Below, in pieces: positions 3,209 through 14,470 of a stretch of DNA of 64,000 bases. Source of the stretch: Candidatus Acidiferrales bacterium (GTDB lineage Bacteria; Acidobacteriota; Terriglobia; Acidiferrales; UBA7541); contig JBAPOM010000092.1 in assembly GCA_049279635.1 (NCBI GenBank), positions 60,457-124,456 on the forward strand, written 5' to 3'. The number at the start of each line of letters is the position of its first letter. Position 1 is the first letter of the stretch. The notes beneath the pieces were generated by a model, which was given only the letters and a program-made list of their open reading frames with translations, made no database searches and was not told where the DNA came from. Position numbers and translations under genes: made by a program.

Positions 3209-3976
3209 ATGAACGTCAAGCAGCTCTTCGATCTCACGGGGCGCGTGGCCATCGTCACCGGGGGCTCGGTTGGCCTGGGGCGCCAGATGGCCGAGGGGCT
3301 CGCGGAAATGGGCGCCAGTCTTGTGCTGTGCGCTCGCAAGAAGGAACGCTGCGAACAGGCTGCCGAGGAACTGAAGGCGCCCGGCGTGAAGACTCTTGCG
3401 CTCGGCTGCGACGTGAAAGATCCGGCGAGCGTTCAGGAGCTTGTGGACGTCACGGTGTCACAATTCGGGCGGATCGATATTTTGATCAACAACGCCGGCA
3501 CATCATGGGGAGCGCCCATCGAAGAGATGAGCCTCGAGCAATGGAACAAAGTGATCGAGACGAACCTGACGGGGACGTTCCTCTGCTGCCAGGCGGCCGG
3601 CAAGATTATGGTCGCGCAGAAGCGCGGGAAGATCATCAATATCGCTTCGACCGCCGGGCTTCGGGGCTCGCCGCCCGAGTTTCAAGCGATCGGATATCAC
3701 GCCAGCAAGGGAGGAGTCATCACCTTCACGAGGGATTTGGCTCGCAAATGGGCGATTCACAATGTCCACGTAAACGCCATCGCGCCGGGATGGTTTCCGA
3801 CACGCCTGTCTCAAGTCGTGATCGAACGAAACAGGGAAAACATGCTGCGGGGAATTCCGCTGGGGCGATTCGGCGGCGAGCATGATTTGAAGGGTGCGGC
3901 CGTCTTTCTGGCGTCGGACGCTTCCGATTTTGTCACCGGAGATGTGCTGGTCGTGGACGGAGGACAAGCAGCGTAG
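3209..3976 (+). CDS. Short-chain dehydrogenase/reductase (SDR) family oxidoreductase
   Basis: Cofactor motif VTGGSVGLG, NNAG motif, and a catalytic S...YxxxK region (ASTAG...YHASKGG). The start is uncertain: GTG 3170, ATG 3185 or ATG 3209. Confidence 0.85.
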   Translation: MNVKQLFDLTGRVAIVTGGSVGLGRQMAEGLAEMGASLVLCARKKERCEQAAEELKAPGVKTLALGCDVKDPASVQELVDVTVSQFGRIDILINNAGTSWGAPIEEMSLEQWNKVIETNLTGTFLCCQAAGKIMVAQKRGKIINIASTAGLRGSPPEFQAIGYHASKGGVITFTRDLARKWAIHNVHVNAIAPGWFPTRLSQVVIERNRENMLRGIPLGRFGGEHDLKGAAVFLASDASDFVTGDVLVVDGGQAA

Positions 3977-3988
3977 GCCAGAGATGCC

Positions 3989-5611
3989 ATGAACGTTCCA
4001 CTCACACCCTTACGATTCTTGCGTTACGCAGAGCAGCAATATCCGGATAAAACGGCCGTGGTATGCGGCAATGAGCGGTTTACGTACCGTCAACTGGCGG
4101 AGCGTGTGGACCGCCTCGCAGGCGCACTGCGCAAGGCGGGAATCGAGCGGGGGGATCGAGTCGCATTTCTGAGCTTGAATTGTCACCGATTGCTCGAGGC
4201 ATATTTTGGGGTTCTGGAGGCGAACGCGGTGCTGCTTCCGTTGAACATTCGCCTGGCGCCGGACGAGCTCACCTATATTCTGAACGATGCAGGGGCGAAG
4301 ATTCTATTTCTGGAAAAGGATTTCTTGGGCCTGGTGGATTCGTTTCGCCAAAAGCTGTCCGCGGTGCAGTCTTTTTTTCTGCTTACCGGAACGCCGCAGG
4401 CAGCCTGGCTCGCTCGCGAGAATTATGAGGAGCTTCTAGCCGCTGCTACGCGGCGTCGCTCCGACGTAATGGAATTCGATGAGAACGCAGTCGCCGAACT
4501 CTTCTACACCAGCGGAACCAGCGCCAATCCCAAAGGCGTGATGCTGACCCATCGAAACGTCTACCTGCACGCGCTGAGCAGTTTGCTGTCCCACGAGACC
4601 TCGCCCGAGGGTGTTCATCTCCACACCATTCCTCTTTTTCATGCGAATGGATGGGGCGCCGCGCACACGGTCACATTCAGGGGCGCCAAGCACGTGATGA
4701 TGCCGCGTTTTGACCCGGCAGAGGTCTTCCGGCTGATCGAACAGGAGCGAGTGCAAAGTTTCGGCGCCGTGCCGGCCATGGCCATTGCGCTAGTGAACTG
4801 CCCGGAACGCAAGAAGCACGATTTGAGCAGCCTCAAGTGGATCAATGTCGGCGGCGCGGCGGCCTCCCCGACGCTTGTGCAGGAGATCGAAGAGAAATTT
4901 GGGTGTACATGCTTCGCCGGATACGGGCTCACGGAAACGGCGCCGGTGCTCTCCGTTTCTTCCATGAAGCCAGGGCTTGAATGGGAAGGGGAGAAACGTT
5001 TTGTGGGCCAGGCGATGACGGGTTACGCCATCCCTGGCGTCGAGCTTCGAGTCGTGGATCCGGACGACAACGACGTGCCTCGCGACGGCCGGGCCATTGG
5101 CGAGATCATCGCCCGCGGCGATGGCGTGATGGAAGGCTACTGGAAACAGCCGGAGGCCACGGCCCAAGCAATGCGCGGCGGATGGTTTCATAGCGGAGAC
5201 CTGGCGACTTGGAACGAGGAGGGGTACATCCTCATTGTCGACCGCCAGAAAGACATTATCGTCAGCGGCGGCGAAAACATTTCGTCGCTGGAAGTCGAGA
5301 AAGCGTTACTCGCGCATCCCGCCGTGCTTGAAACCGCCGTCATCCCCGTGCCTGACCAGAAGTGGGGCGAGGTCCCCAAAGCCTTAGTGGTGCTGAAACC
5401 TGGAGCAGGAGCCGGTGACACGGAGTTGATTGAATTCTGCCGGTCGCGGCTGGCCCATTACAAATGTCCGCGGTCGATTGAATTCCTCGAAAGTTTGCCC
5501 AAGACCGGCACGGGCAAAATCCTCAAGAGAGAGCTGCGCAAGAAATATTGGCAAGGGCGGGAAACAATTCGTCCGGAGATCGCCGAACCGGCTCGAAAGG
5601 GATCAGCTTAG
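3989..5611 (+). CDS. AMP-dependent acyl-CoA synthetase/ligase (fatty-acid--CoA ligase type)
   Basis: AMP-binding signature LFYTSGTSANPKGVMLTH, plus GYGLTE, GWFHSGD and a C-terminal PKTGTGKILKRELR motif. Confidence 0.9.
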   Translation: MNVPLTPLRFLRYAEQQYPDKTAVVCGNERFTYRQLAERVDRLAGALRKAGIERGDRVAFLSLNCHRLLEAYFGVLEANAVLLPLNIRLAPDELTYILNDAGAKILFLEKDFLGLVDSFRQKLSAVQSFFLLTGTPQAAWLARENYEELLAAATRRRSDVMEFDENAVAELFYTSGTSANPKGVMLTHRNVYLHALSSLLSHETSPEGVHLHTIPLFHANGWGAAHTVTFRGAKHVMMPRFDPAEVFRLIEQERVQSFGAVPAMAIALVNCPERKKHDLSSLKWINVGGAAASPTLVQEIEEKFGCTCFAGYGLTETAPVLSVSSMKPGLEWEGEKRFVGQAMTGYAIPGVELRVVDPDDNDVPRDGRAIGEIIARGDGVMEGYWKQPEATAQAMRGGWFHSGDLATWNEEGYILIVDRQKDIIVSGGENISSLEVEKALLAHPAVLETAVIPVPDQKWGEVPKALVVLKPGAGAGDTELIEFCRSRLAHYKCPRSIEFLESLPKTGTGKILKRELRKKYWQGRETIRPEIAEPARKGSA

Positions 5612-5629
5612 TCGAAGGAGTCCCTCGAA

Positions 5630-12387: not shown

Positions 12388-12406
12388 TGTTGCTTGCCCC
12401 GCCAAC

Positions 12407-13633
12407 TCAACGAGGCGGGGATTGCGCCGGGGGCTTCGTCCATTTGCGAAGTTCCTGTTTGGCGATCGCCTCAATGTGTACCTCATCCGGCCCGTCCGCC
12501 AATCGCAGCGTTCGAACGCCGGCCCAAGCGGCCGCAAGGAATGTGTCTTGCGATACTCCCGCGCCGCCGTGCGCCTGAATCGCCCGGTCCAGCACCTGTA
12601 GCGCCACTCGTGGGGCGACCACCTTGATCATCGCGATTTCTCCGCGCGCCGCTTTATTGCCGACCGTGTCCATCATATAAGCGGCCTTCAGGGTGAGTAA
12701 GCGCGCTTGCTCGATCTCCATGCGCGAGGCGGCGATGTCGGCGCGGATGGTTCCTTGTTCGGCGAGGGGCTTGCCGAATGCTACGCGCGACTGCACGCGC
12801 TTGCACGTCGTCTCCAGCGCGCGCTCGGCCACGCCGATACATCGCATGCAGTGATGGATGCGTCCCGGCCCAAGGCGCCCCTGTGCAATCTCGAATCCCC
12901 GGCCTTCGCCGAGCAACATGTTCGACGCCGGCACGCGGACATTTTCGAATGTGACCTCGCCATGTCCGTGAGGCGCATGGTCGTAGCCGAACACGTCAAG
13001 CACGCGCTCGACTTTCACTCCGGGTGCGTCCATTGGGACAAGGATCATGGACTGCTGCTTGTGAGCCGGCGCCGATGGATCCGTCTTGCCCATGAAGATG
13101 GCGATTTTGCAGCGCGGATCGCATGCGCCGGATATCCACCATTTCCGGCCGTCGACGACGTACTCATTGCCGTCCCGGACGATGCTCGCTTCGATGTTCG
13201 TCGCGTCCGATGACGCGACGCCGGGTTCCGTCATTGCGAAACACGAGCGGATTTCTCCGGCGAGCAGCGGTTTGAGCCAACGTTCTTTTTGCTGCGGCGT
13301 GCCGTAGCGTGCGAGCACCTCCATATTGCCCGTGTCCGGAGCCGAGCAGTTAAACACCTCGGGCGCCATCTGGCTCCGCCCCATGATCTCGCACAGCGGC
13401 GCGTACTCAAGGTTCGTCAACCCCGCACCGTCTTCATCATCGGGCAGAAACAGATTCCAGAGTCCTTCGGCGCGAGCTTTCGCTTTAAGCTCCTCGACGA
13501 TCTTCGTAGGCCTCCATCGGTTCTGCTCGATCTCCTCCTGGAAGCGTTGCTCGTTCGGATAGACGTGCTCGTCCATGAACGCCTGCACGCGGCGCTGTAG
13601 ATCCTTTGTCTTGTCGCTGAATTCGAAGTTCAC
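12407..13633 (-). CDS. Acyl-CoA dehydrogenase, FadE2/ACAD10-ACAD11-type
   Basis: Characteristic N-terminus ([13 protein letters not shown]...[26 protein letters not shown]), [22 protein letters not shown], and [12 protein letters not shown] start. Confidence 0.9.
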
Positions 13634-13642
13634 TGGATTGTC

Positions 13643-14470
13643 TTATCTGCCGGTGAAAGAAGGGGAGCGCTTCTCGATGTAATGCGCGACACCCTCCTTG
13701 AAATCTTCACTCTTCAGGCTCGCCAGCATCTCGCGCTCGGCGAGTTCAAACGCCTCCGAGAGACTTTGGAACATCGCTTCGTACACTTGCCGCTTCATCA
13801 CGCGCAAGGAACGTGGGCTCACGGTCGACGCCATTTCTCGCGCATTTTCCCGCACCTTCTCCCCAAAAACGTCCTGGGGGAACACCTGGTTCACCAATCC
13901 GATCCGCAGCGCTTCGGCCGCGTCGATGGTGCGCGCGGAGAAGAGAAGATCGAGCGCGTTCGGGACACCGACAAGACGCGGCAACATCCACGCCATTCCG
14001 TACTCTGCCACCAGGCCACGGCGCGCGAAGGCCGTGCTGAGGCGGGCGCTGTCCGAGGCCCAGCGGAGATCGCAATACAGCGCGATCACCAGCCCGAGTC
14101 CGACGGCGGGTCCGTTGAGAGCGGCGATCACCGGTTTTCCAACCTGGAGAAAATACGAATACTTCTTCTGGAAATCGGGTCGAATGCCCTCACGAAGCGC
14201 GTTCGCGCTCATTGCCCGCTTTTTGCCGCTGTCATCGAGGCCCTGATTCGCGACGCTGCTGAGAAGCGACATATCCGCGCCGGCGCAGAACCCCCGCCCC
14301 GCGCCAGTCAATACGATCACGCGCGCGTTGTCGTCGCGCTCGGCTTCCTCGACCGCCGAACGCACCTCCTGCTCCATGATCGCAGTCCAGGCGTTCAGTT
14401 TGTCCGGGCGATTCAGCGTGATGGTCGCGACGCGATCAGCGACCTTGTAAAGCGTCTCCTGGCCAGCCAT
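13643..14470 (-). CDS. Enoyl-CoA hydratase/isomerase (crotonase) family protein
   Basis: ITLNRPDKLNAW, GRGFCAGADM, and ALNGPAVGLGLVIALYCD. It lies 9 nt upstream of the ACAD on the same strand. Confidence 0.9.
   Translation of the reverse strand: MAGQETLYKVADRVATITLNRPDKLNAWTAIMEQEVRSAVEEAERDDNARVIVLTGAGRGFCAGADMSLLSSVANQGLDDSGKKRAMSANALREGIRPDFQKKYSYFLQVGKPVIAALNGPAVGLGLVIALYCDLRWASDSARLSTAFARRGLVAEYGMAWMLPRLVGVPNALDLLFSARTIDAAEALRIGLVNQVFPQDVFGEKVRENAREMASTVSPRSLRVMKRQVYEAMFQSLSEAFELAEREMLASLKSEDFKEGVAHYIEKRSPSFTGR

Follow-up and report, generated by a model that had tools for sequence, protein, structure and literature searches.

Acyl-CoA thioesters that carry a hydroxyl group at C4 can be converted via a 4-phosphoacyl-CoA to a 2-enoyl-CoA by the joint action of a kinase and an acyl-CoA dehydrogenase (ACAD). 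Assays with mouse and human ACAD10/11, with LvaABC of Pseudomonas putida and with two separate proteins from Burkholderia pseudomallei have demonstrated this conversion (PMC12440821, PMC11342911). The kinase (Q63VL0) and the ACAD of the latter replaced the respective domains of ACAD10 in vitro, and LvaA shares 29% identity with the kinase domains of ACAD10/11 (PMC11342911). Here we describe a nine-gene locus on contig JBAPOM010000092.1 of an Acidobacteriota metagenome-assembled genome (4.24 Mb, 97% complete; near relatives are labelled Acidiferrales or Terriglobia). The analysed stretch of 64,000 nucleotides is referred to as the window, and the locus encodes a kinase with aminoglycoside phosphotransferase (APH) fold next to an ACAD10/11-type flavoenzyme. 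Judged from its sequence, the locus is probably (we estimate a probability of about 0.8) an accessory catabolic unit that joins a complete beta-oxidation set to a two-enzyme bypass for removal of a gamma-hydroxyl group, with the kinase acting first and a phosphate-eliminating ACAD second.

According to its published description, the B. pseudomallei pair resembles the proteins of the window in that a separate APH-fold kinase and a separate ACAD10/11-type ACAD function without LvaB, and for both pairs the similarity to ACAD10/11 exceeds the one reported for LvaA. In contrast to B. pseudomallei, the two genes of the window are convergent on opposite strands and lie inside an acidobacterial beta-oxidation unit of nine genes. 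Mammalian ACAD11 (mouse, 8v3u/8v3v) combines both functions in one chain, the N-terminal domain of which matches the kinase (2e-52) and the C-terminal domain the ACAD of the window (4e-143); catalytic aspartate, HCMR motif and an upstream arginine are identical in mouse ACAD11 and the window ACAD. Unlike mammalian ACAD10/11, the two halves are present here as two proteins and the HAD domain is missing.

The lvaABCDE operon of Pseudomonas putida KT2440 and the corresponding genes of Pseudomonas citronellolis LA18T share with our locus a ligase, a short-chain dehydrogenase/reductase (SDR), a kinase and an ACAD that feed 3-hydroxyacyl-CoA or enoyl-CoA into beta-oxidation. LA18T has, like most relatives of the window locus, a histidine phosphatase in place of LvaB. 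The window locus differs from lva by the absence of LvaB and of an LvaR-type regulator and by a ligase of the long-chain type, and it additionally comprises a heteromeric ACAD, FadB, a thiolase, a crotonase and an outer-membrane barrel. A sequence-only reading of this DNA had claimed that every part of an lva-type entry route is present. This holds only with regard to the enzyme classes, all of which were found; the ligase appears to be of a long-chain and not of a C4-C6 (LvaE) type, and the regulator is TetR rather than LvaR. No LvaR-type regulator adjoins the operon, and the sole regulator found upstream on the same strand belongs to the TetR family. LvaB is a small protein of 12 kDa that LvaA requires as a partner. 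The same reading had seen no small LvaB-like open reading frame (ORF), and indeed none fits beside the kinase gene because the flanking gaps measure only 23 and 19 nt.

Kinase and flavoenzyme belong to the ACAD10/11 family, keep its catalytic residues and are genomically coupled

The kinase retains all catalytic residues (R67, E84, H218, D220, K222, N225, D241 and E243), and these align with R61, E78, D214, K216, N219, D234 and E236 of a solved bacterial homologue, the roles of which are described in a preprint (10.1101/2025.09.10.675409). The features of an APH fold are thus represented by an arginine in beta3, a glutamate in alphaC, an HxDxK...N loop and a DWE metal site; the latter two, which the sequence-only reading had described as intact, are found as LIHNDYKYDN (H218, D220, K222, N225) and LDWE (D241, E243). 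That reading had let the gene start at position 11308; the gene is present, yet an ATG at 11320 is the likelier start codon than the TTG at 11308 because the alignments to PDB sequences start only at residue 14. The gene is present in a single copy in the genome.

Only six PDB sequences matched the kinase at E <=1e-3. The best were 9o56 (5.9e-112; an ACAD10-type bacterial kinase), mouse ACAD11 (2e-52) and 3dxp (8.6e-51); the top four are of the ACAD10/11 type and the remaining two scored 2e-10 and 2e-7. Aminoglycoside, choline or homoserine kinases, a grouping with which would speak against the proposed function, were not among the PDB matches at E 1e-3. Since the top relatives are all of the ACAD10/11 type, such a grouping fails; NCBIfam gave merely weak matches (E-values of at least 5e-6) to other kinases. 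The entry 9o56 presumably represents the 'ACAD10 kinase' of Caldalkalibacillus thermarum, an assignment based solely on equal numbering of the catalytic residues; a literature search on the PDB code 9O56 returned nothing relevant. The kinase is of the ACAD10/Burkholderia type that needs no LvaB, rather than of the LvaA type, and we predict that it is an ATP-dependent 4-hydroxyacyl-CoA kinase.

The minus-strand gene opposite the kinase had been taken for a dehydrogenase of the FadE2/ACAD10-11 type, and PDB matches, motifs and a phylogenetic tree all agree with this assignment. Among all PDB sequences the protein matched mouse ACAD11 with 4e-143 and 480 bits, in comparison to 2e-42 and 148 bits for the best ordinary ACAD; the mycobacterial homologue 4hr3 and human ACAD11 (2wbi) each scored ~1e-140. 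The three-domain ACAD fold is represented by PF02771, PF02770 and PF00441, each over cut-off. In ACAD11, D753 serves as catalytic base, and the 4-phosphate is held by R626, H634 and R637 ('HCMR' motif; PMC12440821). The equivalents of R626, R631, H634, R637 and D753 (mouse ACAD11 numbering) are kept in the flavoenzyme, the stretch with the R...R..HCMR residues beginning at residue 251. The motif with the catalytic aspartate, which replaces the usual glutamate, begins at residue 376 and is found as an identical string in 8v3u; 8v3v has an asparagine at the D753 site.

In the tree, the HCMR-bearing ACADs form a single clade (SH-aLRT support 99), apart from the two other ACADs of the window and from the remaining ACADs of the genome. 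The clade consists of two subclades, and the flavoenzyme, encoded by a single-copy gene, falls into clade A together with a eukaryotic HAD-kinase-ACAD protein, so that a phylogeny places it inside the HCMR-motif ACAD10/11 clade. From its residues and relatives we predict that the flavoenzyme turns 4-phosphoacyl-CoA into 2-enoyl-CoA by phosphate elimination.

Members of the second HCMR subclade are 40-47% identical to the window ACAD and have the motif ARIYDGPDEVH. In Pyrinomonadaceae, Planctomycetota and other phyla (L061:8650-9834, L068:8835-9989, L077:8824-9984 and others), their genes adjoin the kinase gene on its upstream side and on the same strand, and they constitute the ACAD part in most prokaryotic ACAD-kinase fusions.

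The genes for the kinase and the HCMR-type ACAD are present once each in the genome and are separated by 19 nt in the window. We determined their co-occurrence in 201 genomes of the class, two of which are unpublished (G077, G102). Of the 201 genomes, 23 contained the kinase and 25 the ACAD; 22 genomes had both, one had the kinase alone, three had the ACAD alone and 175 had neither. A search for fusions, that is, for longer proteins containing kinase homology, retrieved more than 30 clusters of prokaryotic proteins with an N-terminal ACAD and a C-terminal kinase that is 50-60% identical to the window kinase. Eukaryotic fusions have the opposite order, the kinase being followed by the ACAD. Two independent fusion orders are strong evidence for a joint function of kinase and ACAD, and in many phyla the kinase is either adjacent to or fused with an HCMR ACAD.

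Metagenomic proteins in which the kinase is fused to a Zn alcohol dehydrogenase (Zn-ADH), to SDRs, to a CoA-transferase or to an acyl-CoA ligase were also found (P0036, P0042-P0045, P0048, P0055, P0056), some of which could be gene-calling artefacts. SDR-kinase fusions are P0044 and P0045; the ligase-kinase fusion is P0056, the ligase portion of which is 40% identical to the window ligase.

Ether-linked membrane lipids occur in Acidobacteria, and this favours another function, in which the kinase would mainly phosphorylate 1-O-alkylglycerols (or monoacylglycerols) in the salvage of ether lipids, CoA thioesters would be mere activators and the position of the locus would reflect general lipid turnover. 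Phosphorylation of chimyl alcohol is reported for several ACAD10-kinase homologues purified from prokaryotic sources, and the kinase of C. thermarum, the structure of which has been solved, was found to have a 1-O-alkylglycerol kinase activity that is stimulated by acetyl-CoA (preprint 10.1101/2025.09.10.675409). We nevertheless regard a salvage function as unlikely. An HCMR ACAD is present in 22 of the 23 kinase-bearing genomes, the window ACAD retains the phosphate-binding R/H/R residues, the kinase is found fused to acyl-CoA enzymes (ACAD, ligase, SDR, CoA-transferase), and Pfam and NCBIfam scans of the locus and its upstream flank revealed no glycerolipid gene; the preprint itself leaves the relation of the two activities open. 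The genomic data bear on the choice between 4-hydroxyacyl-CoAs and alkylglycerols as substrates of ACAD10-type kinases: since adjacency, co-occurrence and fusion link the prokaryotic kinase with the HCMR ACAD and with acyl-CoA enzymes, acyl-CoA substrates are favoured, at least in bacteria.

Organisation of the locus and its conservation in Acidobacteriota

ORF listing, Pfam and NCBIfam scans returned the same genes at the same positions as the sequence-only reading (Table 1), including a tightly spaced plus-strand operon that converges on a minus-strand ACAD and crotonase, with kinase and ACAD split onto opposite strands. Its statement of 4-31 nt within the operon was equally accurate; the intergenic gaps from 3209 to 14470 are 12, 18, 4, 25, 31, 23, 19 and 9 nt, the 19-nt gap separating the kinase (+) from the ACAD (-).

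Table 1. Genes of the window locus and genes of related loci that are missing from it. The last column gives the number of Acidobacteriota loci with full flanks in which the gene is linked to the kinase gene.
Feature	Position	Strand	Matches or further occurrence	Linked to kinase
Outer-membrane beta-barrel protein, TonB-dependent-receptor-like	1-3099	+	PF25183 1.8e-105, PF00593 8.4e-07	31/48
SDR	3209-3976	+	PF00106, PF13561 ~1e-61; PRK08213 361.9 bits (cut-off 279)	41/48
AMP-binding acyl-CoA synthetase (ligase), long-chain type	3989-5611	+	PF00501 4e-90; PRK06187 580 bits (cut-off 476)	46/48
ACAD, alpha (large) subunit of probable alpha2beta2 heteromer	5630-6817	+	PimC-like, 283.8 bits, under NCBIfam cut-off	27/48
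ACAD, beta (small) subunit of probable heteromer	6822-7925	+	PimD/IpdE2-like by NCBIfam, under cut-off	
FadB/FadJ-type enoyl-CoA hydratase / 3-hydroxyacyl-CoA dehydrogenase	7951-10077	+	PF00378, PF02737, PF00725	36/48
3-Ketoacyl-CoA thiolase	~10109-11296	+	PF00108, PF02803; TIGR01930 426 bits (cut-off 240)	9/48
ACAD10/11-type APH-fold kinase	11320-12387 (alternative TTG start 11308)	+	PF01636 1.5e-49	
ACAD10/11/LvaC-type flavoenzyme (clade-A ACAD)	12407-13633	-	PDB matches, motifs, tree	31/48
Crotonase-family enoyl-CoA hydratase	13643-14470	-	PF00378 1e-52; PRK06210 374.5 bits (cut-off 341)	24/48
Histidine phosphatase (relatives)	L002:9272-9991, L007:9212-9979, L013:9285-10004	+	50 further loci	
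MaoC hydratase (relatives)	L007:11124-11588	-	52 further loci	
CurA-like reductase (relatives)	L019:13419-14423	+	17 loci	
PcaD-like hydrolase (relatives)	L019:14446-15267	+	24 loci	

Conservation of this arrangement was followed in 80 related loci, and 48 Acidobacteriota loci with full flanks were used for linkage counts (Table 1). Down to ~63% kinase identity the recurrent order is SDR, ligase, (ACAD alpha and beta), FadB, (thiolase) and kinase, opposed by ACAD and crotonase. In a family sample of 31 genomes, kinase and ligase orthologue were present together in 10, one of them alone in two (G045, G217) and neither in 19, and ACAD alpha follows the same pattern. This joint presence or absence across the family indicates that the locus behaves as one accessory unit and not as a housekeeping operon with a chance neighbour. 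Kinase fusions with an SDR, a ligase and a Zn-ADH argue in the same direction. The earlier statement that the locus is not plain beta-oxidation is thus supported by the synteny of SDR, ligase and FadB in Terriglobia and by the family-wide co-presence of ligase, heteromeric ACAD and kinase.

The ligase finds its best solved relative in the Thermus long-chain fatty-acid-CoA ligase 1ult (1.3e-101). The two ACAD genes that follow it are only 4 nt apart and probably encode an alpha2beta2 heteromer, as judged from their best matches, which are to different subunits of the same solved heteromers. ACAD alpha has its best PDB matches to Tcur3483 (6wy8_B/6wy9_A, 4e-54) and then to chain A of 4x28, while ACAD beta is best matched by Tcur3481 (6wy8_A, 4e-51), with chain D of 4x28 in third place (6e-35). 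The tandem genes thereby resemble the separate chains of the known alpha2beta2 ACADs, namely those of Mycobacterium tuberculosis (4x28) and Thermomonospora curvata (Tcur3481/Tcur3483, 6wy8) and PimC/PimD. Since the scores are far under the cut-offs of PimC, PimD and IpdE2, the two proteins are not orthologous to the enzymes that act on pimeloyl-CoA or steroids. In the column of the canonical base, ACAD alpha reads NTIEAGTSEVQ and ACAD beta SETTLGDSTCH in an alignment that was made for another question.

Loci with an arrangement of the Acidobacteriaceae/Korobacteraceae type have a 589-aa ACAD of the Bacillus FadE type (NF058590, 752 bits) in place of the heteromeric pair (L019:11619-13388, +; 8 further loci); here the HCMR ACAD is found ~8 kb off, beyond the outer-membrane gene.

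The presence of the enzyme classes of LvaA, LvaC, LvaD and LvaE within one locus would also be explained by a genuine levulinate (lva) operon with specificity for two C5 acids, levulinate and 4-hydroxyvalerate, as in P. putida, and the PcaD-like enol-lactonase-type hydrolase and CurA-like enone reductase of the relatives could yield 4-oxo acids from unsaturated lactones. Several properties of the locus make such a specificity decidedly improbable. The ligase passes the long-chain model PRK06187 and is nearest to a Thermus long-chain enzyme, whereas LvaE prefers C4-C6 (PMC6692424); the unit has a heteromeric ACAD of a type for bulky substrates, a complete FadB, a thiolase and an outer-membrane barrel; LvaB is absent and the upstream regulator is of the TetR and not of the LvaR type. 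In addition, the kinase is far closer to ACAD10/11-type kinases, with the domains of which LvaA is reported to be just 29% identical (PMC11342911). We therefore assume that medium- or long-chain or bulky 4-hydroxy or 4-oxo acids are more likely the natural substrates than levulinate, given the long-chain-type ligase, the heteromeric ACAD and the outer-membrane barrel. A strict levulinate operon is less likely than an accessory unit for removal of gamma-hydroxyl groups, and so is a chance neighbourhood. That kinase and flavoenzyme are chance neighbours of an ordinary housekeeping beta-oxidation operon, to which they have no functional link, is very improbable, because the orthologues of ligase and heteromeric ACAD track the kinase in the family (present with it in 10 genomes, discordant in 2, absent with it in 19), gene order is held to ~63% kinase identity and ligase-kinase and SDR-kinase fusions exist, even though the genome has few ACADs and two FadB-type genes only, so that the operon must bear a good share of general fatty-acid oxidation, and the thiolase is beside the kinase in just 9 of the 48 relatives.

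Four genes that most relatives have in common are not present in the window locus or in that of its closest relative (L001), namely those for a histidine phosphatase, a MaoC hydratase, a CurA-like reductase and a PcaD-like hydrolase. Of the 48 Acidobacteriota loci, 39 have the gene for the histidine phosphatase (PF00300, 239 aa) adjoining the kinase gene upstream, as do 9 of the 23 loci of other phyla; no homologue was detected anywhere in the present genome. In P. citronellolis, the lva cluster that is induced by levulinic acid lacks lvaB and encodes a histidine phosphatase in its place (PMC6692424), and this connects the entire gene family of loci with lva-like chemistry. As the kinase-ACAD pair travels either with a histidine phosphatase, in the relatives, or with a non-homologous HAD domain, in ACAD10, a phosphatase step may be a general, undescribed part of kinase-ACAD systems. 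A MaoC homologue of this genome (69% identical) is located on another contig (C239:35501-35962; L082:11501-11962, -), where it converges with a 71%-identical FadB paralogue and adjoins an esterase (PF00756).

In many relatives, the crotonase is flanked by an NADPH enone reductase of the CurA/LTB4-12-hydroxydehydrogenase type and by a PcaD-like (3-oxoadipate enol-lactonase-like) alpha/beta hydrolase. This place on the crotonase side is filled in the window by a gene for a Tat-amidase (14620-16491), which is common only to the closest relative and was not counted as a member of the unit.

The remaining features concern the borders of the locus and individual genes. The barrel gene is 5'-truncated at the window edge, and the N-terminal CarboxypepD_reg domain of its product is encoded upstream on the contig (PF13620, 3.8e-22). 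FadB reached ~500 bits with the NCBIfam models of both FadJ and FadB, under both cut-offs. EchA12_1 (3qre, 1.9e-55) was the best PDB match of the crotonase, the gene of which has the same direction as the ACAD gene and is separated from it by a 9-nt gap. A TetR regulator (PF00440, 4e-13) and an AdhP-like Zn-ADH are encoded on the same strand directly upstream of the window (G000:C92:57897-59697; L081:11897-13697, +); homologues of both (68-81% identical) precede the SDR in the relatives wherever the retrieved flank extends that far. A GC-rich hairpin of 7 bp (CCCCGCC...GGCGGGG) spans the convergent gap and the last ACAD codons (12388-12420; weak, z -1.9) and could be a shared bidirectional terminator. 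A scan of positions 2900-16800 for promoters and terminators gave counts that were not over shuffled expectation, and a structured element in the 109-nt spacer between barrel gene and SDR was dropped because folding was no better than that of shuffles (z -0.19).

Proposed pathway and its meaning for soil Terriglobia

That gamma-hydroxy or gamma-keto acids enter beta-oxidation through this locus, as the sequence-only reading had proposed, is supported by the family placement of kinase and ACAD, by their pairing and co-occurrence, by the fusions and by synteny. Conversion would presumably be initiated by import of an organic acid, possibly via the linked outer-membrane barrel, and the ligase would then form the CoA thioester; the class of the latter enzyme is evident, and its substrate is presumably such an acid. 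Heteromeric ACAD, FadB and thiolase would shorten the thioester. The 4-hydroxyl group may be present initially, may be exposed by chain shortening or may be formed by the SDR from a 4-oxo group; the SDR is in this respect a candidate reductase for the conversion of 4-oxoacyl-CoA to 4-hydroxyacyl-CoA, in a role similar to that of LvaD. The kinase would now phosphorylate the 4-hydroxyl with ATP to give a 4-phosphoacyl-CoA, and the convergently encoded ACAD11-type flavoenzyme would eliminate the phosphate to yield the 2-enoyl-CoA. Hydration of this product by the crotonase or by FadB would allow it to re-enter beta-oxidation.

Four points weigh against this assignment. SDR and ligase were likened to LvaD and LvaE by enzyme class alone. 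The co-occurrence counts overstate independence because the sampled genomes are related. The closest solved kinase, 9o56 (5.9e-112), shares its residue numbering with the alkylglycerol kinase of C. thermarum. Finally, histidine phosphatase, MaoC hydratase, CurA-like reductase and PcaD-like hydrolase are present in most relatives and missing here, and the window locus may therefore be trimmed or represent a partly different pathway.

For the unit of Terriglobia as a whole, we tentatively suggest a dedicated system for uptake and catabolism of plant- or soil-derived oxygenated lipids. One strand would then perhaps provide TetR, Zn-ADH, barrel, SDR, ligase, heteromeric ACAD, FadB, thiolase (at some loci), histidine phosphatase and kinase, and the convergent side might contribute the MaoC hydratase, the HCMR ACAD and the crotonase, often together with the CurA-like reductase and the PcaD-like hydrolase. 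Conceivable substrates are unsaturated gamma-lactones, 4-oxo-2-enoic acids, products of 4-hydroxyalkenals and mid-chain-hydroxy acids of cutin or suberin. If this is true, the kinase-ACAD pair resolves gamma-oxygenated intermediates on which beta-oxidation would stall in its absence.

The chemistry of the bypass is not new in itself, and split bacterial pairs have already been published (Burkholderia and Pseudomonas assays); our literature search found no paper that ties Acidobacteria to the 4-hydroxyacyl-CoA kinase-ACAD pathway. With good support, the locus adds a new case to a pathway that has been demonstrated before in mammals and in other bacteria, to which the presence/absence pattern at family level, the two ACAD subclades and the repertoire of fusions are useful additions. 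It also provides functional names for two genes that databases list as 'phosphotransferase' and 'acyl-CoA dehydrogenase'. Part of the soil Terriglobia would have an accessory route for gamma-hydroxy or gamma-oxo acids, which bears on how lactones, levulinate-like biomass products and oxidised lipids are turned over in soil.

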